Shown here: positions 1-35,589 of the stretch, in pieces | Layout: the number at the start of each line of letters is the position of its first letter | Numbering within the stretch: position 1 is the first letter of the stretch | Virus record (IMG/VR): IMGVR_UViG_3300029913_000001 | Length of the DNA stretch: 64,000 bases | Direction: 5' to 3' (one strand) | Source: a virus | Taxonomy: Duplodnaviria > Caudoviricetes | The notes under the pieces: model-generated | The model's database searches: none | Told to the model about the DNA's origin: nothing | Seen by the model: only the letters and a program-made list of their open reading frames with translations | Position numbers and translations under genes: made by a program

Positions 1-1687
1 TCATGGCGGCAACAATTTCATTATTATATTTCATCACGAATGCGCTATTTCCACTAACCCACCCCTGGAGATGATTATTATCAAGGAACTCCTTTAAATC
101 AATGTTATCAATTTTTTCAATACTGCATTTTCTTGCATAAATTCTGGTCCCATAACCCAATGAATTTTTAATAATCGATTTGCAAATGTCCGGTTTTTTG
201 CACCATTCATCTTCGAAAATTGAAAGCAGTTGAATATTCTGTTCGGCACATTTCTTGAATTTATCGTAATGGTATGAGTGTGATTTATTGCCGGCATATT
301 CACTATGCCAATAATTCCCGTTAAATTCAATTGCAAAATTTTTCGAAGGAATTAAAATATCTATTTCTTTCGGAGCGCATATTGTCCGATCGTGCATCTT
401 AATTTCTGCTTCAATAAATGTAGAAAGCCAATTATTAATTTCGTGCTCATAGCAACTTGATTTCGAAGAAATATAATTTAAACCGTATTTATTGTGTGTT
501 ACATATATAGTTGTTTCGGATACTCCCAATTTATTAATAATTTCTGGAAGACTATAAATTTTGAATAAATCCGAGAATTTTTCTTTATCATTTAAAATTT
601 CTAAGGCATACGCAGAGTAATGTTTTTGCAGTGCAAAAGGAACACCATATTTTCGAAGCATCGTATCTTTCATCTTTTGCCGAACAGTAGCAGAAGACGC
701 GGGCGATATTCCCCCATATTTTTCTACATTGGTTGCGTGAATTCGATTTTGAATTTCTATCGATAATAAAGGATTATCCACGCCATATTTTTCGAGATTT
801 GTTTTCTTACTTTTATCTCGAAATTCTTTTACTTGGCCAACATTTTCAACACCGTATTTTTTAATATTAGTTTCTTTTGTTTTATTTTTTATTTCTTCCG
901 ATTGAGCTGCATATTCTTCGCCGTATTTTTCGAAATTTGTTTCTTTAATTTTTTCTTTTATTTCCGTTGATTTAAACGGGTTATCCACGCCATATCTTTC
1001 TATATTTGTTTTCTTAATTTTATTAAGTATTTGTGGTGATTGTGTAGGATATTCTACTCCAAAACGAAATAAATTAGTATCACAAATTTTTTTCTTAATT
1101 TCCGGCCGTTGTGTAGGAAATTCAAACCCAAATTTTTCAAGATTTGACTGGCGAACCATATTCCGGTATTCTTCATTCTGCATCGGATGCTCGACGCCGA
1201 ATCTTTCTAAATTGGTTTCTTTAATTTTATCTTTAATGGCCGAGGCTTGCGTGATAAATTCAACGCCATATTTTTCGAGATTTGTTTCTTTAATTTTTTC
1301 TTTTATTTCCGCTGATTTAAACGGATTATCCACTCCGTATCTTTGAATAGTAGTTCGGCGCCTCTTCTCGGTTGTGCTAGATAGTTTGCTAGGATGTGCA
1401 ACTCCATATTTTTTCAAGTTAGTTTCTGTTTTACTTGCCTGAGCGGCTCTACAGCCCTTATCACAAAAGAATATATGATTCCACCCAGAAATATAACGAT
1501 GCTTACCGGAGCCGCAAGGGCAAAGAATTTGTTCTTTAGTAATTGCAGTATAAATTTTTTCTTTATTTGTTATAGCATTTTCATCACAATTAAGCAACAC
1601 CCATTCCCATGCAGCTACATTTTTAGAAATCAATGCAACCGCATGGTTAGCATGTTGTTTAATTGTTTGTATTATCCACGATTTCAT
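1..1687 (-). CDS. Putative homing endonuclease (PD-(D/E)xK/Hef-like, YGVxNP repeats), 3'-truncated by the window edge; absent from the ORF track
   Basis: Hand translation from ATG 1687 (overlaps uvsX end, GAGGGA upstream) stays open to base 2: MKSWIIQTIKQ...CPCGSGK...about 12 x 23-aa TNLEKYGVDNP-type repeats...EIDILIPSKNFAIEFNGNYWHSE...ARKC...HLQG. Paralog of 33841..35589. Confidence 0.85.
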   Translation of the reverse strand, partial: MKSWIIQTIKQHANHAVALISKNVAAWEWVLLNCDENAITNKEKIYTAITKEQILCPCGSGKHRYISGWNHIFFCDKGCRAAQASKTETNLKKYGVAHPSKLSSTTEKRRRTTIQRYGVDNPFKSAEIKEKIKETNLEKYGVEFITQASAIKDKIKETNLERFGVEHPMQNEEYRNMVRQSNLEKFGFEFPTQRPEIKKKICDTNLFRFGVEYPTQSPQILNKIKKTNIERYGVDNPFKSTEIKEKIKETNFEKYGEEYAAQSEEIKNKTKETNIKKYGVENVGQVKEFRDKSKKTNLEKYGVDNPLLSIEIQNRIHATNVEKYGGISPASSATVRQKMKDTMLRKYGVPFALQKHYSAYALEILNDKEKFSDLFKIYSLPEIINKLGVSETTIYVTHNKYGLNYISSKSSCYEHEINNWLSTFIEAEIKMHDRTICAPKEIDILIPSKNFAIEFNGNYWHSEYAGNKSHSYHYDKFKKCAEQNIQLLSIFEDEWCKKPDICKSIIKNSLGYGTRIYARKCSIEKIDNIDLKEFLDNNHLQGWVSGNSAFVMKYNNEIVAAM

Positions 1688-2738
1688 TATCTTCGGTTCC
1701 CTCTAATAATAGGTTAGTAGTACGATCAGAATCGAATTCTTTCATAATGAGATCCAAAATACCATCCGAGTTAGTTAGATATTCCTTACGCCAATGCTTA
1801 TGTTCAATGCCAGATAAATCGGCATACACATATCTATTTCCTTCCTTAGCAATCAACTTTTGCTTTTCAAATAAATCAAACAATCCCGAATAGGGATCTA
1901 TTCCAGTTGTCCAAGGGATTACCACTTCTACGGCTTCGAACGGCTTATTATAACGAGTTTTCAAAATTTTACATTTTGATCGAATACCCAATACGTCGGA
2001 CCCTTTTACACCGTCTTCATTTTCTTTTAATTTAAGAGGATTCATTGAAACAACAATACTTGCGGCGAAAAGGGGGCCGCTTCCGCCGGAAATAATATCG
2101 TCTGTATATTTATCTTGCGAAGAATAAGTATGATTGGTTGCTATCATGCCAATTTCTAAATCCCCGAACATGTTAACACAATTAATAATAAGTGCCTTTA
2201 ACTGTTTTGCCTTAATACCCATATCGCCTTTTAACTCGCCAGCGGCAAACTGGTCAATCATTGTAGGTGTTAAAAGCATACCAAGACTGTCGATAACGAA
2301 CAATACTTTTGGACGATCCTCAATTGGAATATCCCGATATTGCTGAACAAAATCATTAATCATTTTGGCAACATCATTAATCATTGCCATGTTAAGTTTT
2401 AATAGTTTCTCGTCACTGGTATCTACACCAATAGCTTGTAGCCACGCCTCATCGAGCGCATTTTCCGAATCTACTAAAATTACATAAATTCCTTGGGCCT
2501 GCGCATTTTTAATGATACTTCCGGATGCTACTAAAGATTTTCCCGCACCCGGTGAACCAGCCAAAATAGAAACCTTACCTAAAGGTACCCCGGCAGTAAA
2601 ACTTCCGGAAATTAAATAATTAAGACAATAGTTACCGGTTGAAATCCAAGTTTTTGGATCGCGAAATCCTACAGACATTCCAGGAATTGATTTAGTGATT
2701 CCACGTCTAAATTTTGCTACATCGAAAGGCTTACCCAT
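1659..2738 (-). CDS. uvsX: UvsX/RecA-like recombinase
   Basis: Walker A GSPGAGKS, Walker B VIDSLG, TGNY motif; adjacent to gp32. Confidence 0.95.
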   Translation of the reverse strand: MGKPFDVAKFRRGITKSIPGMSVGFRDPKTWISTGNYCLNYLISGSFTAGVPLGKVSILAGSPGAGKSLVASGSIIKNAQAQGIYVILVDSENALDEAWLQAIGVDTSDEKLLKLNMAMINDVAKMINDFVQQYRDIPIEDRPKVLFVIDSLGMLLTPTMIDQFAAGELKGDMGIKAKQLKALIINCVNMFGDLEIGMIATNHTYSSQDKYTDDIISGGSGPLFAASIVVSMNPLKLKENEDGVKGSDVLGIRSKCKILKTRYNKPFEAVEVVIPWTTGIDPYSGLFDLFEKQKLIAKEGNRYVYADLSGIEHKHWRKEYLTNSDGILDLIMKEFDSDRTTNLLLEGTEDNEIVDNTNN

Positions 2739-2816: not shown

Positions 2817-3800
2817 TTACTTTGCCTGGCCGCGAGCCTTAATCTTTGCTAAAATATCTTCAGCAGATGGACGATTGCTAGCCGGAGCAGGAACCGTTTT
2901 AACCGGTGAAGAACTTGTCGCTTCTTCGTGTGTTACTTCTGAAACCTTGGCAGCAGGAAGCTGCTCGGTAAGAGAAGTAGATACGGTTGACTCGTCGCCC
3001 TTATCAAACTTCATGCCTGATGGACGATAAAACTTACCCCAACGTTCAGGATCATATTCTTCTCCATCAACTGATGCTTCGAACATCTCAACAATAACCT
3101 TAAGGTCAATGTCGGTGGGCTTCTTGCCAAGTAACTCAGACAAGTTACTCAACTTATATTGCTCAATTGCATCTAATTCAGTCTGTGTAAGTGCAGATTC
3201 ACGTCGTGCATAAGAACTTGTACCATAATCTGCATATTGGCTCTTTTGCGTCTTAGCGATACGGAAATCAGTTCCCTTTTCATAATCACTGGGAATATTT
3301 TCCATATCGACATCCCTAAGGCCAGCCTTTACTAAATTGATAAGTTGCTTGTTAAGTGAAAACTTACGGATTGGATTCTCCGGAGCCTTATCATCTGGAA
3401 CGGCATTCTCTCGAACAAATCCCTGCATAAGATAAGATGGCTTCTTCCAATACTTATTGGCTGTTTCCTTCATGCTAGGATCCTTATACCATGCTCGAAC
3501 TTGGGCTAGTATAGGGCAGCCTTGCGGATATTCGGACTTCGGGAACATTTCAACGCAAGGTACACTTACTGTAACTGGCTTTGAATCTCCACCTTTAATA
3601 CCCAAAAATGGGAGCTTAATCTGAAGTTTTTCTACCCAAAAGAAGGGATTAGTGGTATCACCATCAGGAAGAAATCGTACGGTTGAGGTGCTATCAGGTT
3701 TTCCATTCCAAAACGGAAAAAATGCATTATCACTTGTAAATGTTTTGGTTTTTTCAGCGGCTGCTAGACGAGCCCTGATTTCAGCGAGTGCGTTACCCAT
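2817..3800 (-). CDS. gp32: Single-stranded DNA-binding protein, T4 gp32-like
   Basis: VRFLPDGD, CPIL, YWKK motifs; located next to uvsX. Confidence 0.9.
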   Translation of the reverse strand: MGNALAEIRARLAAAEKTKTFTSDNAFFPFWNGKPDSTSTVRFLPDGDTTNPFFWVEKLQIKLPFLGIKGGDSKPVTVSVPCVEMFPKSEYPQGCPILAQVRAWYKDPSMKETANKYWKKPSYLMQGFVRENAVPDDKAPENPIRKFSLNKQLINLVKAGLRDVDMENIPSDYEKGTDFRIAKTQKSQYADYGTSSYARRESALTQTELDAIEQYKLSNLSELLGKKPTDIDLKVIVEMFEASVDGEEYDPERWGKFYRPSGMKFDKGDESTVSTSLTEQLPAAKVSEVTHEEATSSSPVKTVPAPASNRPSAEDILAKIKARGQAK

Positions 3801-3816
3801 GTTAGTTCTCCTTGTA

Positions 3817-3863
3817 TTCCATGTTTAATATTACAGTTCCATGTTTAATAGTACAGTTACCAT
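3817..3863 (-). repeat. 20-bp tandem repeat (about 2.3 copies) in the gene 32 leader
   Basis: ttccatgtttaatattacag / ttccatgtttaatagtacag / ttaccat, directly upstream of the AGGAG Shine-Dalgarno. Confidence 0.9.
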
Positions 3864-3917
3864 TTGTGTTACTCTTTATATGATACACAACTATTTATCA
3901 TAAAGCAAGAAAAATCT

Positions 3918-4136
3918 TCAATTATTATTTTTATTATTAATAACATCTTGTATCAGAGCATCTATATGATTCATTGCTTTTTCTTTATTAGGATATGAGG
4001 CATGCCGCATATAATGATCTAAATAGTTTATTTTCTTCTGGAGTGAGGCTCTATTTTTTACGACCTCGGTTATCATTTGTTGTAATCGAGGCCGCATTGT
4101 TTTCCAATATTGTTGAACATCGTCAGCGAGTTCCAT
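3918..4136 (-). CDS. Hypothetical protein (72 aa)
   Basis: ATG at 4136 overlaps the upstream stop; fills the gap to the gene 32 promoter. Confidence 0.55.
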   Translation of the reverse strand: MELADDVQQYWKTMRPRLQQMITEVVKNRASLQKKINYLDHYMRHASYPNKEKAMNHIDALIQDVINNKNNN

Positions 4137-5544
4137 GTGCCGAGCCCGAAAGTCGTACGATATCTCGCATTTCACTTTCAACTAAATTTTCATCATCTAA
4201 TTCTTCTGATTTTGATAACAATGAAAAAGGACTCGCTTCACCATTAGTTGTCTTTAATTTATCTAATTCTTTTTTACTGTGAAATTCCTTAACTCTTTTT
4301 AAATCCGGCGTGGTAAACGGACTAGCACAGCCAGCCGCGGCTGGCTCATCTGCTTCTGTTAAGGTCATTGCTTTTAAAATCTCTTTTTTCTTTTCATGCA
4401 CTAAATTTGAAGTGGCACGGCCAGTTCGCAGTCGCTGCAACTCTGTATATAACTTTGGCTGTTTTACCTGAATAATCGCCTGCTCTAAGTTAGGGAAAAT
4501 TTTATTTGATTCGGCCCATTTAATCAATTTACTATGAAAAGGAACAGATTCCGCGATCTGTTTATTATTTGCCCATTGCTCAAACTCGCCTTCTTCCGGG
4601 AGTTTAGATTTATTATGATAAGCTCTCATAACATACGGCAGCGCAGATTTATTTTTGTCGTCTAACTCTTCACCAAAAAAATCTGTATCAGTATCATCGT
4701 CAAAATCTACAGATGCAGACTCGAGTTCTGGTGTAATCTTTGTATATCCACCTTGCGAGCTAAGTCTGCCCAACTGATGCTTAATTTCTGTGCATCGTTC
4801 TTTTGCAGAATTAAGAGCATTAATTGCTTCCGGCGTGTCAATTCTTGAACTCATATGTCGTACAAAAGAAGCTAATGCGGCCATTTCCGCTACCATATGA
4901 CAAATATTGGATCCAATCGTATCATACGGTGTGCCACCATTAAAAATATGCCGAGCCATTGCTCTTGCAGCCATTAAGCTCTTAAAAGGTAGCAAAAATT
5001 TTTCACCGGCTGCACTCGAAAGATAAATTTTCTGGATTTTACGTGAACGACTATTCTTAACCTTTGGATCAACTCTATCGGTATGCTTAATAATAATCTG
5101 CATATTTTCTAATGGTTGTTTGCTAGTTCTAACCGTGCCATCGATTGGTCCAAATGTGCTCTCAAACATTGGCGCTATATCTCTTCGAGTAATAGTTGAC
5201 TTATTAATATTTCTAACATCAAATCCTAGCATGTGCATTTTTGCAAATAATCGAATCTCACCAAGAAATTTCATCCATTCCTTCTGGGTTTCTGATTCAA
5301 CATTTGCAAGTTCGTCGCCAAAATAAATTTTGATAGAATTAGCACTATCTTGATCTTCTAAGAGCGAAATTACCACACATCCAACATCCTCTCCGTGCTT
5401 ATCTACATAATCAAAGGTAAAACACATCATCTTTGATGGATCTAAAGTAGATACACCATTCTCATCTACACTTTCTCCTAGCTCAAATCGCGACTTTAAA
5501 AAGTCATACAAATTGGTTGATACATTATCTATAACTTTTGGCAT
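4123..5544 (-). CDS. Probable virion/head-associated protein
   Basis: 473-aa ORF with its own TATAAATA promoter and Shine-Dalgarno; several hydrophobic-x-E-S sites; C-terminal MRDIVRLSG. Confidence 0.6.
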   Translation of the reverse strand: MPKVIDNVSTNLYDFLKSRFELGESVDENGVSTLDPSKMMCFTFDYVDKHGEDVGCVVISLLEDQDSANSIKIYFGDELANVESETQKEWMKFLGEIRLFAKMHMLGFDVRNINKSTITRRDIAPMFESTFGPIDGTVRTSKQPLENMQIIIKHTDRVDPKVKNSRSRKIQKIYLSSAAGEKFLLPFKSLMAARAMARHIFNGGTPYDTIGSNICHMVAEMAALASFVRHMSSRIDTPEAINALNSAKERCTEIKHQLGRLSSQGGYTKITPELESASVDFDDDTDTDFFGEELDDKNKSALPYVMRAYHNKSKLPEEGEFEQWANNKQIAESVPFHSKLIKWAESNKIFPNLEQAIIQVKQPKLYTELQRLRTGRATSNLVHEKKKEILKAMTLTEADEPAAAGCASPFTTPDLKRVKEFHSKKELDKLKTTNGEASPFSLLSKSEELDDENLVESEMRDIVRLSGSAHGTR

Positions 5545-5559
5545 GGTAACCCTCTGTTA

Positions 5560-5567
5560 TATTTATA
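5560..5567 (-). promoter_or_regulatory. T4-type late promoter TATAAATA
   Basis: Exact T4 gp55 late consensus upstream of 5544. Confidence 0.75.
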
Positions 5568-5576
5568 CGAAAACTA

Positions 5577-7253
5577 TTAATATAGATCAACAAAAAATGG
5601 TAGAGGCATTTCAATCTCTCTAAGATCATCATCCAATCCAGGAATATAATTTTTTATAGAATCTAACATACGAACAATAGTCAACATTGCGGTAACTAAA
5701 TCATCTGTTTCGCCTATTTTTGCCTCATATGAATTACCCATACTAATAAATGTTTTTAGTTCTGAAAGCAATTTTTTACTTTTTACCGTTAATTTATCTG
5801 ATTCGATTAGTTGTTTTAATTTTGAGCAAGCTGTTCTTTTACTTGAGCCGGTTGTACAGAATCCTTTCCTAAATTTTGCTGCTTGCCCCAATTTCATTGG
5901 CTCGGATAAAAATATGCCTGGAATATTTTCCTCTCCAATATCACGGATAGTCACTAATGTCGCTTCACCCACAGAATTATTTTCAACAGAATAAAATACA
6001 TTATTAATTCCAGCTATCTCGGTGAGATAGGTTGTAATTTCTGTCAAAATTTTTACTTGGCCTTCAATGGGAGTTTTATTATGACACCATTCTCCGCATT
6101 GTATCTTTGAAATTGCATCTAATATTTGAATAGCCGCCGGATCTCCTCCAGTGCCAAAACTCGGATCCAATGCAACAAGATATGTTCTATTTTTTTCTGG
6201 AGTCGTATACCATCTAATTTGCCCCATATGTTCGATTGGATCTACACCAGTCAATTCACTTAATTTAATTGGTGAAACTAGTGTTTCTTCATAGGTAACG
6301 AAGCGGCACAGAATTTCGCGTTCAAATCGTTCATTGCCGATTTTCTCTCGCCACATTGCTGCCCAGGCATCATCCCTCTCAGGATGCTCATACCAATATG
6401 CCCTGAATGCTTTGAATCCATTTATTCCTACTCCATTAGGTAAAGTATTACCCAATTCATCTTCAGTTTTATTTGCCGCATTCCATGTTTCCGCAAATAA
6501 ATCATCAGAGTTATTCGGTGTTGAAGTAATAATAGCCTTACCACCAGTAGCCGCTAAGGTAAGACTGCAAGATGTCCACATTTCTCTAGCAACTTGCTGT
6601 CTTTTAACAAACGCGAGCTCATCAAGGTATAAGATGTTTATGCTCATACCTCGACCAGTTGTTTCAGTTGTTGTTTGTGAAGCAATTTTTGAGCCATTAT
6701 CAAATACAATACTCTGCTTATTATATTCCGTTATTCCGGCACGTATAAAATCGGGCATATTTTCATATCCAAATTTTATACGTGACATAATTTCTGAAGC
6801 GCCGGTAAATTTATGGGCTGCAATAAGAATTGTCTGGTCACTTATAAACATTGCGCACCACAATAAATATCCAGCAGCAGTGACTGTATTATGACTAAGA
6901 ATATCGTTGGAATAAAATCTATGATTTTGACTATCCACAGTAATATCAAACATATTTTCGGATTCATTGCATGAAAATATGTTTTTAGTTTTTTGCAGGC
7001 CAAATTTTGTTTGAATTAATTGATTATTTTGTATATCTTTTAAAAATATTTCATTCATATTTTCATCGAAAACAATATGTGTATCGGCAGCATCCAATGC
7101 GGTATTTTCTAATTCAAGATGCCATTTTTCATAAGGAACAGTTTTATTAATAACAGATATAGGTTCCCACCCGGAATCCGTTTCAATCTCCCATTCATCG
7201 GATTCGATGGTATCAACGAATTTTCGTTCTATTTGTTCAGAAAAGTTAGACAT
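5577..7253 (-). CDS. terL: Terminase large subunit, C-terminal part, preceded by a 122-aa split-intein C fragment (6888..7253)
   Basis: Intein features: block B DTH, block F MFDITV, terminal SHN followed by Thr. Then Walker B YLDELAF and nuclease motifs ALDPSFG and DDLV. Confidence 0.95.
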   Translation of the reverse strand: MSNFSEQIERKFVDTIESDEWEIETDSGWEPISVINKTVPYEKWHLELENTALDAADTHIVFDENMNEIFLKDIQNNQLIQTKFGLQKTKNIFSCNESENMFDITVDSQNHRFYSNDILSHNTVTAAGYLLWCAMFISDQTILIAAHKFTGASEIMSRIKFGYENMPDFIRAGITEYNKQSIVFDNGSKIASQTTTETTGRGMSINILYLDELAFVKRQQVAREMWTSCSLTLAATGGKAIITSTPNNSDDLFAETWNAANKTEDELGNTLPNGVGINGFKAFRAYWYEHPERDDAWAAMWREKIGNERFEREILCRFVTYEETLVSPIKLSELTGVDPIEHMGQIRWYTTPEKNRTYLVALDPSFGTGGDPAAIQILDAISKIQCGEWCHNKTPIEGQVKILTEITTYLTEIAGINNVFYSVENNSVGEATLVTIRDIGEENIPGIFLSEPMKLGQAAKFRKGFCTTGSSKRTACSKLKQLIESDKLTVKSKKLLSELKTFISMGNSYEAKIGETDDLVTAMLTIVRMLDSIKNYIPGLDDDLREIEMPLPFFVDLY

Positions 7254-7609
7254 TGTCGAAGCACCATATCTTTATTAGTTTTAAAATCATGTTCGGCTAC
7301 ATGTAACACTTCAAATCCCATATCGTTAATTGCTCTATCCCGAGCTAATTCTCTAATAACACTTGTTTTTGCATCAGAATGCCAATAAGAATCATCATAT
7401 TCTATTTTTCTAGAAAAATATTGGTCATCATTATACGCCTTACTACAAGATATATTACAAAATCGTTTAATAATCCTACCTTCAATTTCTTTATTACAAT
7501 ATTCGCAATTCTTTTTATATTTTCTTTGTGAGTGTTCTTTCCCCAGGCTGTCTATACTCACTGATATCTGGTAAGTCTGTTCCGGCCCGCTTTGCAAATT
7601 CATATTCAT
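7229..7609 (-). CDS. Free-standing Vsr/DUF559-like endonuclease between the terL halves, probably degenerate
   Basis: AGGAG Shine-Dalgarno and ATG inside the IntN coding region; CxxC..FCxxxC; IEYDDSYWHS and RD....MGFEVLHVAE motifs; only 126 aa. Confidence 0.7.
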   Translation of the reverse strand: MNMNLQSGPEQTYQISVSIDSLGKEHSQRKYKKNCEYCNKEIEGRIIKRFCNISCSKAYNDDQYFSRKIEYDDSYWHSDAKTSVIRELARDRAINDMGFEVLHVAEHDFKTNKDMVLRQCLTFLNK

Positions 7610-7937
7610 AAAATACTCCTATAGGAATAATATATACTTCTTTCTTTTTATTCCTTATAGTTACATTTATGCTAGCCGTCAAACATTTGCCTGATTGCCG
7701 AGGAAGTAACGAAATCGACCACCTGTTATTGTGGTATACATCAATTAACTTGTCTTGATAAGAATATGGTTTATATTTAATTTTTCCTTTGCACTGAACA
7801 TAAAAATAATTAGACAAAAAATAATGTGGGCCCGTTACAGGATCTGCGCATTTTGCAAATTCTTGCAGTTGCTCGGGAGTATAAGACATTTTTTGATGAG
7901 GTTTTTTAATTACAGCGGATTCCAAATAACTACTCAT
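7515..7937 (-). CDS. terL: Terminase large subunit N-terminal part (84 aa) fused to a 56-aa split-intein N fragment (7518..7685)
   Basis: YSYQ Q-motif, LLPRQSGK then CLTASINV (intein block A starting with Cys1), then stop. Confidence 0.92.
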   Translation of the reverse strand: MSSYLESAVIKKPHQKMSYTPEQLQEFAKCADPVTGPHYFLSNYFYVQCKGKIKYKPYSYQDKLIDVYHNNRWSISLLPRQSGKCLTASINVTIRNKKKEVYIIPIGVFYEYEFAKRAGTDLPDISEYRQPGERTLTKKI

Positions 7938-9073
7938 TTTATACCTGCTATTACTTTAGCTTCTTCGCATGGATTATCTATATGGGCAATAATACTAGGG
8001 CTGGCCGTCACAGCAGCTATTTGTACTTCTTTCGACGGATGGTTAATATAACGAATTACGTCTGGATGGGTTTCTACTGCCATTAATTTTACCTTTTCCG
8101 AGGCTACACCTTGTTGAAGCAGTTGTAAAATAATTTCAGGCTGTCGGCTAACCGCGATTAACTGTAATTTTTCCGACGGGTTTTTAATCATCATAATTGT
8201 AAACGCATCGTATTTAATAGCGAATTCTTTTATTTCTTCTGAAGGATTTTCCATATATCTTAAAACATAGGGATTTAAACGCAGTGCAATAAATTTCATT
8301 TCATCTGTCGGATTATTATAAAATCTATATGCGGCCGGATATGTTTTAATTGCCAACTTTATCATTAAATCGGACGGATTTTTAACGTGCTCTATATAAT
8401 CTCCGTGAGTCGTTAATCGAGTTAATATAATCGCATCTACTGGCATTAACTTTTTAAATACTTCTAAAAATAGTGAACTATCGGCATATATCGCAATATA
8501 TGTTCCTCGAATATAAACCTCGTTGCCATTAAGAAGTGCGCGTTCTAGTTCAGAGCTATTTTTAAAATCATATGTTTCTACAAAGGCATAGGCATTAAGA
8601 GTTTGTAAATCGGTTGCAAATCTAGAATTCGAGTAATCATATAGACCTAAATCCGACGTAAGATCTTGCGCGATCGGAGTCCACGTATATTTAAACCCGT
8701 CTAATGGAAAGATTACATATTTACGTCCATAAGAGTTAGCTCTATCTTCTGCCGAGGTGACAAATAAACTATTTCCTCGTCGTGCCAAAAATCCCGCGGC
8801 TTTTAACTTTTTATCGAGGGCGTGATGTATTGCTGGGAAGGTATCTTTTGGCATTCTATCCATGCGTGGCTTGCCAATAAAAATTTCTTTATTAACATCA
8901 TCACGTAGACCTTGACCGCGATATAAAATTCGATGGGTGTCGTTATACATTGATAAAATAATTTTACATTTACGTTGAATAAACTCAGCGATTTCCGTGG
9001 CTCTATTTTTATCTACGTAGGTCGTTTGGCCAGATATTATTCGCCCGGGTTTAAAAATTTCATTAATTAGCAC
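7934..9073 (-). CDS. ADP-ribosyltransferase-like domain plus NPSE-type helical repeats; MLINEI leader
   Basis: YRG...RRGNSLFVTS...YG..YVIFP...EVY; C-terminal about 22-aa repeats. Confidence 0.55.
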   Translation of the reverse strand: MLINEIFKPGRIISGQTTYVDKNRATEIAEFIQRKCKIILSMYNDTHRILYRGQGLRDDVNKEIFIGKPRMDRMPKDTFPAIHHALDKKLKAAGFLARRGNSLFVTSAEDRANSYGRKYVIFPLDGFKYTWTPIAQDLTSDLGLYDYSNSRFATDLQTLNAYAFVETYDFKNSSELERALLNGNEVYIRGTYIAIYADSSLFLEVFKKLMPVDAIILTRLTTHGDYIEHVKNPSDLMIKLAIKTYPAAYRFYNNPTDEMKFIALRLNPYVLRYMENPSEEIKEFAIKYDAFTIMMIKNPSEKLQLIAVSRQPEIILQLLQQGVASEKVKLMAVETHPDVIRYINHPSKEVQIAAVTASPSIIAHIDNPCEEAKVIAGIK

Positions 9074-10436
9074 GATACTTCACCCCGTTCGCTTGCGCTA
9101 TTTTAATTGCGGCAGCGCAAGCATGAGGAATATCATACACCACAAATGGAGCAGCAGTAACCGCGGCAATTTGAATTTCCTCTGAAGGATTTTGTATATA
9201 CATAATCGCACTTGGATTTTGAGTAACCGCGGCTAATTGAACTTCAGGTGACGCCTGGTTTTTAAAAAAACGTAAAACTAACCCCTCACGGGATACAGCC
9301 GCCATTTGCATTTCTTTTGTCGGAAATTTAATAAATTCAATAACATCGGGAGTACTTTTTATCGCTATTGATATAAGTTTGTCACTCACAGATACTTGCT
9401 GTAATAAATTACAGAGAACCCATGGATCTTTGGCATTTTGCAAAGCAATTTTTTTTAATTTTTCACTAGGATTTTTAATTGAATTTATTAAACGAGGCTC
9501 ATGAGATACCGCAATTTCTTTAACCTTTTCACTAGGATTTTTCAGATATCTGAATAACCATGCATTGTGTCTAGCTATAAAAAGTTGCATTTCTTCATCT
9601 TGATCCGTAACAAATTCAATTGCAGCAGGTTTATGTTTTAAGGCATATAGAATTAGTTTTCTAGAGGGATTTTTAACATATTTTAATGCTACTCCCGACG
9701 ACGCGCAGGCGGTCAAAATCATTTTTTCCGTTGGATTTATAATATATTTTAAAAAATTCCCAGTTGCACGTAATACGGAAAGTATAATTTTTTCAGCCGT
9801 GGCATCACCAAATAATTCATACATAATAATAGGAAAAGATAATTCGTCTGCCCGTATAGCGATATATGCTCCATGAATGCAAACTTCACTACTCGATCGC
9901 AAGGCATTGTATATACCTACATTATTTTTAAATTTATATTTGTCAACGAACTCTTTTGCCGTTAGATTATGTAAATCTTCCTGAAAAGAATTACTATCCT
10001 CATAGTAATTTGATAAAGAATACTCGGCTGTTAAATCATTGGCTGCCGGAGTCCACATATACGAAAACCCATCAATAGGAAAAATAACAAATCGATCTCC
10101 ATAATGTGCAATATCCATACCCGAAGCAGTTACAAAAATACTATTTTTTCGGAGAGCCGTAAATCCCATCTTAGATAGTTTATCATCAATTAATTTCTGA
10201 TTACGCCGGTCGGTATCTCTAGGGCGTCGATCGTTAAACGGTTTTCCTATAAAAATATTTGACCCATTTTCATAGGTACCTCGATAAAAAATTCGATTTG
10301 TTTTACGATAGTCCTCTAGAATTTTTTTGCACCTACGTTTAATAAACGCAATTGCATCATTAAGCTGCTCCGGAGTCAATAATAATTTACCTCCGGGCTT
10401 TATTTCTCCATACTTAATAATTTCATTTATGTGCAT
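9063..10436 (-). CDS. Tandem paralog: ART-like domain plus about 10 NPSE-type repeats; MHINEI leader
   Basis: YRG...RKNSIFVT...YG..FVIFP...EVC; clear similarity to 7934..9073. Confidence 0.55.
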   Translation of the reverse strand: MHINEIIKYGEIKPGGKLLLTPEQLNDAIAFIKRRCKKILEDYRKTNRIFYRGTYENGSNIFIGKPFNDRRPRDTDRRNQKLIDDKLSKMGFTALRKNSIFVTASGMDIAHYGDRFVIFPIDGFSYMWTPAANDLTAEYSLSNYYEDSNSFQEDLHNLTAKEFVDKYKFKNNVGIYNALRSSSEVCIHGAYIAIRADELSFPIIMYELFGDATAEKIILSVLRATGNFLKYIINPTEKMILTACASSGVALKYVKNPSRKLILYALKHKPAAIEFVTDQDEEMQLFIARHNAWLFRYLKNPSEKVKEIAVSHEPRLINSIKNPSEKLKKIALQNAKDPWVLCNLLQQVSVSDKLISIAIKSTPDVIEFIKFPTKEMQMAAVSREGLVLRFFKNQASPEVQLAAVTQNPSAIMYIQNPSEEIQIAAVTAAPFVVYDIPHACAAAIKIAQANGVKYRAN

Positions 10437-33648: not shown

Positions 33649-33802
33649 TCCATATTCTCTAGCACATAATAATTATATACTAACTTTTAATAGCCAGCAA
33701 GATAATTAGACCAATATACTTTTGATCCTGCTGCTAAAATAAAGCTATAACTAAAAAATATCATTATATAAGCCAAAGTATAATTACTACTTGCATTACT
33801 TT

Positions 33803-33831
33803 TGAGAAAGCATTACTACATACTTATAGTG
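33803..33831 (+). promoter_or_regulatory. Sigma70-type promoter for the endonuclease gene
   Basis: TTGAGA-17-TATAGT, then GAGG Shine-Dalgarno and GTG 33841. Confidence 0.6.
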
Positions 33832-33840
33832 AGGCGATCT

Positions 33841-35589
33841 GTGATAGATATATTACAAAACATTATTAATACAAGACCGTTCTATGCATCCCGAATTATT
33901 GCTAATAATACCGAAATGTGGAAATGGGTAATGCAACATTGCGATCCTTTATGCATTGATGACAAAACTCGAATTTATACCGCAATATCAGGCGAAAAAA
34001 TTCAATGCCCATGCGGCTCCGGAAAACTTAGAAAATTGTCTAAATGGTATTCGGGATTATCTTTTTGTGGAAGAGCAGGAAAGTGTTCTGCTGCAAAAGA
34101 AGCGGTGATTAAAAAATGTACCGCCGCTGCCAAAGGATGGGATAAAAAAGCGGCCGCTGCAAAAAGAAAAACAACGAATCTTAAGAAATATGGCATAACT
34201 AATACCGGCCAGCTTGAAAAATCAAAACTTGCTAGAAAAGCAGTGTACGACGATCCCACTAAAGTCAAAGAAATTCTTCAAAAAATGCAGGCCACTAACC
34301 GGGAACGATATGGTGTTGATAACCCATCTCAAAATCCAGAAATTCATAAACGTCAGACGAATACAATGTATGAGAGGTACGGCGCGGCTAACGCCATTAA
34401 AATTGCAGATTTTAAAAATCAAATGCAGCAAACTAATATCGAAAGATATGGCGTACCATACGCATCACAAAATGCAGATATTGCAAGAAAAATTGGGCTA
34501 ACTAAAAAACAGACCATGTTGGAGGGAACTGGCAGGCCACACGAAACTCAAATTCATATATCTAACGATGCATGGAATATTCTTCATGATAAAGATAAAT
34601 TTACTGAATTGTTAACCTTACTTGGACGCACAGAATTAGCAAAAATGTTAGGAGTATGTGTAAATACTATTTCCGTATATCATTATAATTTTGGGCTAGA
34701 TATATTAAAAAATTCAGAATCGGCTGTGGAAATTGAAATTACGAACTGGCTCACTGGATTAAATATAAGTTCCCATAAAGATCGAACAATATGTGAGGGA
34801 AAAGAATTAGATTTTTATATTCCTTCATATAATCTAGCAATTGAATATAATGGCCTATTTTGGCATTCTGAAGCACGAGGAAAAGATAAAAATTATCATT
34901 ACAATAAAATGTTACAATGTAATAAAAATAACATCCATCTAATTCATATTTTTGAGGATGAGTGGATTAAAAATCCAAACACATGCAAATCAATTATACA
35001 GCAAAATCTTCATCTAGGAAATAGGATTGCTGCACGAAAATGCAAGATTAAAGAAATCCCCAATAACGACATGCGGGAATTCTTAAACAAAAATCATTTA
35101 CAAGGTTGGGTTAACGGAACGCACGCATATGTGCTGACCTATCAAGATGAAATTGTGGCGGCAATGACATTTGGCAAACCTCGATATAACAAGCAAGCCG
35201 ATTGGGAACTTTTACGACTTACATTTAAAAACAACACAGTTATTATGGGTGGCGCTCAAAAATTATGGAAATTCGCCATTAATGAATTACAGGCAACATC
35301 TATTATCTCTTATTGCGATCGGCGATGGTTCACCGGCGCGGTGTACAATAAACTCGGATTCACTCTTAAAACTCCGGGTGCGCCTACATATTGGTACACA
35401 GATTATGTCTCTAGATGGCACCGTAGTAAATTTACAAAGAAAAATTTATTAAAATTAAGCAAAAATATCGATATAAATCCTACCCAAGAAGATTGGTCTA
35501 TATATAGTGAATCCCAAATAACAAAAGATATTCTCGGATTAGATCGAATTTGGGATTGCGGTCAAGATAGTTGGTTTTGGACAAAATAG
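33841..35589 (+). CDS. Putative homing endonuclease (PD-(D/E)xK/Hef-like, YGVxNP repeats)
   Basis: ELDFYIPSYNLAIEYNGLFWHSE; ARKC..HLQG..ISYCDRRWF..GF C-terminal domain. Confidence 0.85.
   Translation: MIDILQNIINTRPFYASRIIANNTEMWKWVMQHCDPLCIDDKTRIYTAISGEKIQCPCGSGKLRKLSKWYSGLSFCGRAGKCSAAKEAVIKKCTAAAKGWDKKAAAAKRKTTNLKKYGITNTGQLEKSKLARKAVYDDPTKVKEILQKMQATNRERYGVDNPSQNPEIHKRQTNTMYERYGAANAIKIADFKNQMQQTNIERYGVPYASQNADIARKIGLTKKQTMLEGTGRPHETQIHISNDAWNILHDKDKFTELLTLLGRTELAKMLGVCVNTISVYHYNFGLDILKNSESAVEIEITNWLTGLNISSHKDRTICEGKELDFYIPSYNLAIEYNGLFWHSEARGKDKNYHYNKMLQCNKNNIHLIHIFEDEWIKNPNTCKSIIQQNLHLGNRIAARKCKIKEIPNNDMREFLNKNHLQGWVNGTHAYVLTYQDEIVAAMTFGKPRYNKQADWELLRLTFKNNTVIMGGAQKLWKFAINELQATSIISYCDRRWFTGAVYNKLGFTLKTPGAPTYWYTDYVSRWHRSKFTKKNLLKLSKNIDINPTQEDWSIYSESQITKDILGLDRIWDCGQDSWFWTK

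Follow-up and report, generated by a model that had tools for sequence, protein, structure and literature searches.

A terminase gene of an uncultured peat phage that is fractured at its Walker A motif by an atypically split intein and is probably restored by trans-splicing

How does a phage obtain a working large terminase (TerL) when the ATP-binding loop of that enzyme is encoded partly in one gene and partly in another? The question is raised by IMG/VR record IMGVR_UViG_3300029913_000001, a Caudoviricetes sequence of 64,000 nucleotides (nt; the whole stretch is called the window), in which the listing of open reading frames (ORFs) gives three overlapping ORFs on the minus strand between positions 5577 and 7937 that make up a split TerL locus. 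We consider it very probable that this is the fractured terL of an uncultured large peat myovirus, broken between the GK and the T of Walker A by a class 1 intein that is split at the S2 position and splices in trans.

The outer two ORFs, here the N gene and the C gene, share a common reading frame in which ~25 stops lie between the halves; the TerL gene is therefore truly split, and joining of the halves by read-through or frameshifting was ruled out. The arrangement is that of a fractured gene, with two pieces of a host gene that carry split-intein parts, an endonuclease gene between them, and all three on one strand. An earlier reading of the DNA made without database searches (the sequence-only reading) had described the two outer genes and had left out the third ORF, 7609..7229, between the halves. 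Our coordinates and residues agree with its N gene ending in RQSGK, followed by a 56-amino-acid (aa) N-terminal intein part (IntN) from CLTASINV, and with its 122-aa C-terminal part (IntC, 6888-7253) that contains block B DTH and ends in SHN before Thr+1. The joined product that it had drawn, RQSGK-TVTAAGYLLW in a protein of 520 aa, equals the sum of the two exteins (84 + 436). The locus is not a chance pattern, because Pfam and PHROG terminase matches, profile matches of IntC to solved inteins, and hundreds of homologous loci are found for it.

Both exteins were recognizable as terminase. The N-extein gave PHROG terminase matches at 1.5e-12 and aligns with the TerLs of PA5oct, GAP32, and Atu_ph07, and the C gene matched Terminase_6N (3e-9) and Terminase_6C (1.2e-4) in Pfam and PHROG 36964 (2e-105), with a C-extein 46-50 % identical to jumbo-phage TerLs. 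Together they hold the elements of a T4-type large terminase, an ATPase with Walker A and B and an RNase H-like nuclease domain, and Walker A is whole only once both exteins are joined. A single 890-position PHROG profile matches the N gene with positions 18-99 and the C gene with positions 406-859, implying a family with an insert at the same place. Since the intein-less TerLs of PA5oct (GRQLGKSTVAGSYLLW) and GAP32 (ARQMGKTTVVAAYLLW) are uninterrupted at this site in the alignment, the break lies exactly between the Lys and the Ser/Thr of Walker A, and the fracture at Walker A that had been read from the sequence is borne out.

The catalytic residues of the intein were evaluated in its relatives. 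IntN (7685..7518, N gene residues 85-140) starts CLTASINVTIRN, with Cys85 of the N gene, directly after RQSGK, as intein Cys1; every IMG/VR relative has Cys at position 1, whereas Atu_ph07 has Ser. The core motif C-x4-T-x-I-x-I-R-N-K-K-T-G-E..I-x-I-G-E-F-Y-E is kept in ~50 loci. In a 44-sequence IntC alignment A56, D57, H59, M101, L119, S120, H121, and N122 are invariant, and the residues of a class 1 intein (H59, D103..H111, H121, and N122) are invariant or nearly so. The canonical Thr of block B is replaced by an invariant Ala in this family, and the +1 residue is Thr or Ser in all IntC relatives examined. The IntC profile matched VidaL (5e-11), gp41-1 (9e-10), and CatC (7e-7) among solved structures; a search of the same structures with the single IntN sequence gave no match.

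The position of the split was examined with a natural contiguous relative (locus L058), which has both intein parts in one ORF and was folded with the IntC-family alignment. The model is a complete HINT domain (predicted local distance difference test, pLDDT, 91.3; predicted template modeling score, pTM, 0.84) that matched more than 50 solved inteins in Foldseek, best of all VidaL at a template modeling (TM) score of 0.78/0.87. Its N part forms a strand, a second strand, and a helix (residues 28-36), after which a lower-confidence linker contains the counterpart of the IntC start (MS.NKKF). The intein is thus broken after helix alpha1, as is also indicated by CatC, whose chain residues 12-113 align with IntC profile positions 16-124, and block B resides in IntC. 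The sequence-only reading had placed the split just after block A, which can now be sharpened: strand 2 and the first helix also precede the break, which is thus at the S2 position. In a model of the IntN-IntC complex the score was 0.82 in three runs compared with 0.00 for the best control. Of 78 solved complexes 51 reached this mark, as did 2 of 108 mismatched pairs. The N chain makes confident contacts through N gene residues 83-97 and 106-117, corresponding to IntN residues -2 to 33. The model speaks to likeness and association and not to binding or chemistry, and its high score may in part reflect that split inteins with solved structures were already known to the modeling program.

We propose that the ~30-residue IntN core would dock into the nearly complete 122-residue IntC to complete the HINT fold. 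Cys1 would make the thioester, Thr+1 would take over the N-extein, and Asn122 would cyclize, with release of a 520-aa TerL with an intact Walker A. As only the spliced TerL should bind ATP, packaging should need trans-splicing; we infer this dependence with the backing of the invariant catalytic residues in 44 relatives, the complex model, and phage Atu_ph07. The reason for the split would be the gene of a Vsr-like homing endonuclease at this point of the intein, with the IntC start codon placed within the last conserved Cys codon of the endonuclease and the endonuclease start within the codons of the IntN helix.

That the halves give a functional terminase is best supported, if indirectly, by Atu_ph07 (NC_042013), a cultured, plaque-forming Agrobacterium phage that is viable with this split. 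Its gp110 ends in GRQLGK plus a 42-aa IntN that starts with Ser, and after an 11-nt gap gp109 opens with an IntC that ends in SHN before TT and continues as TerL; this split pair is the sole TerL match in the genome. Insertion site and split position are those of the window, and the IntC is homologous (identity of 36 % across the intein and 49 % across the extein). The phage differs from the window in Ser1 in place of Cys1, in the shorter IntN, in the 11-nt spacer, and in having no endonuclease. Its two genes are annotated merely as two 'terminase large subunit' genes, and no mention of a split TerL intein in Atu_ph07 was found in the literature searched.

Relatives of the locus were abundant. 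A search with C gene residues 1-200 returned 1332 metagenome proteins, the best 120 of which cover IntC and are mostly of 550-570 aa, the same architecture, and 503 stretches in IMG/VR encode an IntC relative. Judged by these homologs, this kind of fractured terminase is very common in phage metagenomes. In freshwater run X15 a ~97 % identical phage is present on a 9.2-kilobase (kb) contig in which window positions 7287-7590, most of the endonuclease ORF, are exchanged for 112 other bases, and in which 579 extra bases stand at window 6593-6643, at the Walker B codons. Two relatives (P0011 and P0016) have a second, contiguous intein at the Walker B codons, and the X15 insert is probably the same. 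These differences show the endonuclease to be polymorphic among close relatives and TerL to be a repeated target of inteins. In one further locus (L057) the ORF of IntC and TerL directly after the N gene (3093-3995) stops after 300 aa, and a second, more distant IntC copy (4001-4369) follows the shortened ORF, which suggests that this terL region was duplicated or rearranged.

The coordinates of the locus are collected in Table 1.

Table 1. Elements of the split terminase locus in the window
Feature	Position	Strand	Description
N gene	7937..7515	-	140 aa; N-extein (residues 1-84) and IntN (residues 85-140)
TerL N-extein	7686..7937	-	84 aa; ends LLPRQSGK (7686-7709), first part of Walker A
IntN core	7599..7685	-	29 aa (CLTASINVTIRNKKKEVYIIPIGVFYEYE); Cys1, block A, strand 2, helix alpha1
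Conserved IntN tail	7551..7598	-	residues 30-45, 16 aa (FAKRAGTDLPDISEYR); subfamily-specific
Variable IntN end	7515..7550	-	QPGERTLTKKI (residues 46-56) and TAA stop
Middle ORF, Vsr-like endonuclease	7609..7229	-	126 aa; overlaps both neighbors
Zinc finger CxxC..CxxxC	7445-7507	-	one copy; middle ORF
IEYDDSYWH	7379-7408	-	middle ORF; C-terminal helix region also present
C gene	7253..5577	-	558 aa; IntC (residues 1-122) and C-extein (436 aa)
IntC	6888..7253	-	122 aa; 18-aa leader (MSNFSEQIERKF..), pre-block-B strands, blocks B, F, G
Block B AADTH	7077-7091	-	IntC; His59
Blocks F and G MFDITVDSQNHRFYSNDILSHN	6888-6953	-	end of IntC; terminal His-Asn
TerL C-extein	5577..6887	-	436 aa and stop; begins T123 (Thr+1) VTAAGYLLW, completes Walker A
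Walker B ILYLDE	6618-6635	-	C-extein
ITSTPN motif	6513-6530	-	C-extein
Nuclease motif ALDPS	6159-6173	-	C-extein
Nuclease motif ETDDLV	5694-5711	-	C-extein

The three ORFs are tightly packed, as the ATG of the N gene overlaps the stop of the upstream gene (ATGA) and the middle ORF shares 95 nt with the N gene and 25 nt with the C gene. Sigma-70 and terminator scans stayed at or below the level of shuffled sequence, with no signal above it inside the locus, and the T4 late-promoter motif TATAAATA is absent from the locus (13 occurrences in the window compared with 12.7 expected by chance). We therefore do not propose that the endonuclease or the C gene has a promoter of its own, and the three ORFs appear to be co-transcribed.

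The layout places the locus among the fractured genes described by Dassa et al. in 2009 (PMC2677866), which include a 'Terminase' locus from Lake Gatun. Those genes and the window alike have an N part with IntN, a free-standing endonuclease, and IntC with the C part on one strand, and the Vsr-like endonuclease family used in half of the fractured genes (PMC2677866) is also the one used here. At its 3' end the endonuclease ORF runs into the IntC gene, by 6-69 bp in the Dassa loci and by 25 bp in the window. The Lake Gatun gp17-like terminase was reported with an unusual fracture point and a 122-residue C part with all N motifs except N1 (PMC2677866); IntC of the window also has 122 residues, a comparison by description and not by sequence. 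The endonuclease starts inside IntN in the window, whereas it follows a spacer of 27-51 bases in the Dassa loci, and it is shortened in the window, unlike its counterparts there.

The natural examples of the S2 position are AceL-TerL and GOS-TerL, with VidaL and PolB16 split one element earlier, at S1 (PMC13014065). AceL-TerL, GOS-TerL, and Cat (PDB 6DSL), the consensus of the two, share with the window intein the TerL host, the class 1 residues, the S2 split after helix alpha1, and a short IntN core with a long IntC of 104-122 aa. The IntN is 56 aa in the window and 25-37 aa in the three, and the +1 residue is Thr in the window compared with Cys in all three (PMC11766414). The insertion site of the three was inferred from the Cat chains and from locus L084 (2645-7158 of a 139.6-kb ENA contig), in which TerL is divided among three genes by two atypically split inteins, accompanied by two endonuclease genes of 338 aa and 339 aa, the latter with DUF7487. 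The first break in L084 is at Walker A and the second lies between ..REHLC and C.. on the N side and between ..SSN and CQF.. on the C side. The second IntC matches CatC at 1.2e-10 as a single sequence, CatC itself continues as Cys-Glu, and CatN is the best, albeit weak, match of the second IntN (0.066). In contrast, the window IntC reaches CatC by profile only (7e-7), and its IntN gave no match to CatN. A P-loop needs Ser or Thr at the +1 position. Because Cat matches the downstream intein of L084, with Cys+1 there and Thr+1 here, the window intein differs from these three in insertion site and lineage; on these sequence relationships we conclude that the characterized TerL split inteins belong to the downstream site and that the window intein is of another lineage with the same host and split position. 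VidaL (PDB 6VGV) resembles the window intein in being atypically split and in the Ala at the block B Thr, and is its best profile and structural match; it differs in the S1 split right after strand 2, a 16-aa IntN (PMC13014065), 23 % identity, and another host gene. That IntN has no detectable similarity to CatN and that IntC is a CatC relative at profile level only make it plausible that the window parts form a new orthogonal intein pair.

IntN is longer than its core, and the excess falls into two parts. Residues 30-45 are common to the subfamily formed by loci L004, L007, L009, L019, L021, L026, L030, L038, L042, L079, and L084, and are conserved there with or without an endonuclease. The entropy at the three codon positions is 0.74/0.84/1.30 in this tail compared with 0.78/0.69/1.22 in the core; with a third-position bias like that of the core, the tail is under purifying selection in the frame of the N gene, and mere read-through into the endonuclease cassette was ruled out for these residues. 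The tail makes no confident contact in the complex model. The trimming of IntN to ~33 aa that had been suggested from the sequence fits the predicted interface but overlooks the selection on residues 30-45. Residues 46-56 have no conservation among relatives and no predicted contacts, and are probably read-through into the endonuclease cassette. Relatives encode an IntN of 33-77 aa. In L038 and L042 the N frame continues beyond the tail, and in these and L041 it runs past LPDIS into zinc-finger-like sequence (KKCKHCSVEF.., ..YCSSICKNAAKN) that resembles the finger of the endonuclease, so that a remnant of the endonuclease stands in frame with IntN. This hints that the tail and the endonuclease may formerly have been one polypeptide.

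The middle ORF begins with an ATG in the +1 frame within the Tyr26-Glu27 codons of IntN, six bases 3' of an AGGAG (7616-7620). Its Pfam matches to MTES_1575 (1.3e-4) and DUF559 (5e-3) were both below the cut-offs, while 15 and 14, respectively, of 21 members of its family match these two entries. A profile of the family (C-terminal 130 residues) had I-Bth0305I (3R3P) as best solved match at 1.8e-5, followed by Vsr enzymes. I-Bth0305I is the founding member of the Vsr-like, or EDxHD, homing endonucleases (PDB 3R3P; PMC3239194) and shares the motif I-E-x-D/N-G-x-x-W-H with the family here; it is located in a group I intron, and the window copy is without most of the N-terminal DNA-binding part. 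A homolog occupies the same place in 27 of 55 IMG/VR loci, nearly always with the 25-nt overlap with the C gene, and in ~20 loci the first endonuclease ATG lies at an offset of 80 nt from the IntN start. Full-length homologs at the site have 312-431 aa, with several zinc-finger-like modules before the nuclease domain. The window copy, at 126 aa, lacks this long DNA-binding region, and its first strand with the Asp was not recognizable, while IEYDDSYWH and the downstream motifs are present. By this comparison it is probably a decaying remnant, reduced from more than 300 aa to 126 aa, and the split would thus persist without active homing. Other loci represent further stages, namely remnants of 72-145 aa, no ORF (spacers of 6-56 nt), and contiguous inteins. 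Two long free-standing ORFs of the window, at 33802-35589 (plus strand, 595 aa) and 2-1702 (minus strand, running off the window, at least 567 aa), have DUF7487 (3e-15 and 4e-60) and a Vsr/MTES_1575-like nuclease domain that matches the terL endonuclease profile (3e-7 and 1.6e-6), and are full-length relatives of the decayed terL copy.

IntC relatives that are 50-56 % identical also occur outside TerL, often with the same Vsr-like endonuclease just upstream. In one group (L035, L051, L052, L055, L059) the IntC ends in ..SHN before SMWLHNIA.. and the host is a DnaB_C protein (5e-17); in the other (L031, L046, L050, L066, L080; L039, L054-L056, L065, L067) it ends in ..SHN before STILDALTFGLFGK.. 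and the host is an SbcC/Rad50-like protein with AAA_23 below the cut-off. Both insertions are again between the GK and the S/T of a P-loop. In a tree of IntC the host groups cluster, and the backbone is without resolution. A tentative extension, which we favor less than its negation, is that the Walker A intein and its Vsr-like endonuclease make up a single mobile module of three interlocked genes, so far not described as a unit. It would account for an endonuclease start built into conserved Phe-Tyr-Glu codons of IntN at the 80-nt offset, for an IntC start built into the invariant C-terminal Cys codon of the endonuclease with the 25-nt overlap almost everywhere, and for the presence of the module at the same P-loop position of TerL, a DnaB/gp41-like helicase, and an SbcC/gp46-like ATPase. 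If so, the conserved IntN tail (..AKRDGTxLPDISxY) would have a function of its own.

We weighed whether the locus could be explained without trans-splicing. An assembly or sequencing artefact hiding a contiguous gene has the metagenomic origin alone in its favor and can be practically dismissed, given that the N frame meets ~25 stops before the second half is reached. The whole stretch is present in 8 peat-metagenome runs, and partly in others; one peat run, which may be where the window sequence came from, has a 23.5-kb contig with zero differences from it. Short contigs assembled separately in runs X9 and X12 show no difference from the N-gene stop through the endonuclease ORF to the IntC start, so the stops that the sequence-only reading wanted checked hold up. 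The layout is also seen in a finished phage genome and in dozens of assemblies unrelated to this one. A near-identity search among deposited phages gave no match. A dead terL that a mobile element had inactivated, either because the phage is defective or because another copy serves as backup, with the intein motifs as relics, would suit an endonuclease that is clearly decaying and a terL search confined to the window. Yet neither the exteins nor the intein parts are truncated and none of their motifs is damaged, the sequence is unchanged in several peat samples at normal depth, substitutions in the IntN core and tail are biased to third positions, and in the viable phage Atu_ph07 the sole TerL is split in the same way; we regard this account as very improbable. 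Hardly greater is the chance of a two-chain terminase, in which the intein halves hold the TerL fragments together noncovalently or cleave without ligation. The complex model, which speaks to association only, would accommodate it, and Thr+1 and the block B Ala could slow splicing. However, more than 150 residues of intein domain would be left within the P-loop, between its Lys and Thr, which is poorly compatible with ATP binding and makes noncovalent complementation unlikely, and the family-wide conservation of Cys1, His59, His121, Asn122, and Thr/Ser+1 would be without purpose in the absence of splicing.

An alternative that concerns the endonuclease only is that the 126-aa ORF is an active minimal homing enzyme and the locus currently mobile. 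The ORF keeps the IEYD-D-SYWH, R-D, and E-x-D motifs, the zinc finger, and a good AGGAG-N6-ATG, its presence or absence relative to the ~97 % identical X15 phage indicates recent gain or loss, and the two full-length relatives that the window encodes outside the locus could act in trans. Weighing more heavily, ~200-300 N-terminal residues of its full-length relatives are missing, no PDF-type first strand is recognizable and only residues 62-126 fold with confidence, the Gly of EYDG has become Asp, and the X15 allele retains the last ~19 codons of the ORF, resembling deletion of a resident gene. We consider an active enzyme unlikely, although it is a more serious prospect than any of the three accounts above.

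Several points weigh against trans-splicing of the window intein as we propose it. To our knowledge, no member of the Walker A lineage, the window intein included, has measured splicing. As a nucleophile, Thr+1 is inferior to Cys. Block B has Ala where Thr is canonical, although every family member shares this Ala and VidaL has it too. A second intact terL may be present elsewhere in the genome, outside the 64-kb window, and the window endonuclease may still be active despite its size. Finally, the 56-aa IntN exceeds every characterized atypical IntN (15-37 aa; PMC13014065).

As phage biology the finding, though genuine and almost certainly functional, is an ordinary one, as fractured terminases have been known since 2009, and the differences from characterized cases are modest: the Walker A site with Thr+1, the IntN length with its conserved tail, and the shortened endonuclease. 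The practical value lies in a natural S2-type split intein with Cys1 and Thr+1 and a sequence far from Cat, AceL, and VidaL; split inteins with a short N piece are wanted as orthogonal ligation tools. The window intein comes from a cool peat habitat, and its hundreds of natural variants could be used for consensus design. The family also displays gain, decay, and loss of the endonuclease, with full-length, shortened, and absent copies and contiguous inteins, and these stages at a non-canonical position of the intein fold bear on why inteins break where they do.

Further observations concern the surroundings of the locus. The T4 late-promoter consensus is found at window 5560-5567 (minus strand), 20007, 42866, 42890, and 51187 (minus strand), and lies 16-42 nt upstream of several minus-strand starts, including that of the structural gene right after terL. 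Upstream of terL, two minus-strand genes (7934-9073 and 9063-10436) are paralogues with MxINEI starts and no Pfam match, and both carry a C-terminal array of NPSE(K/E) repeats of ~18 residues each.

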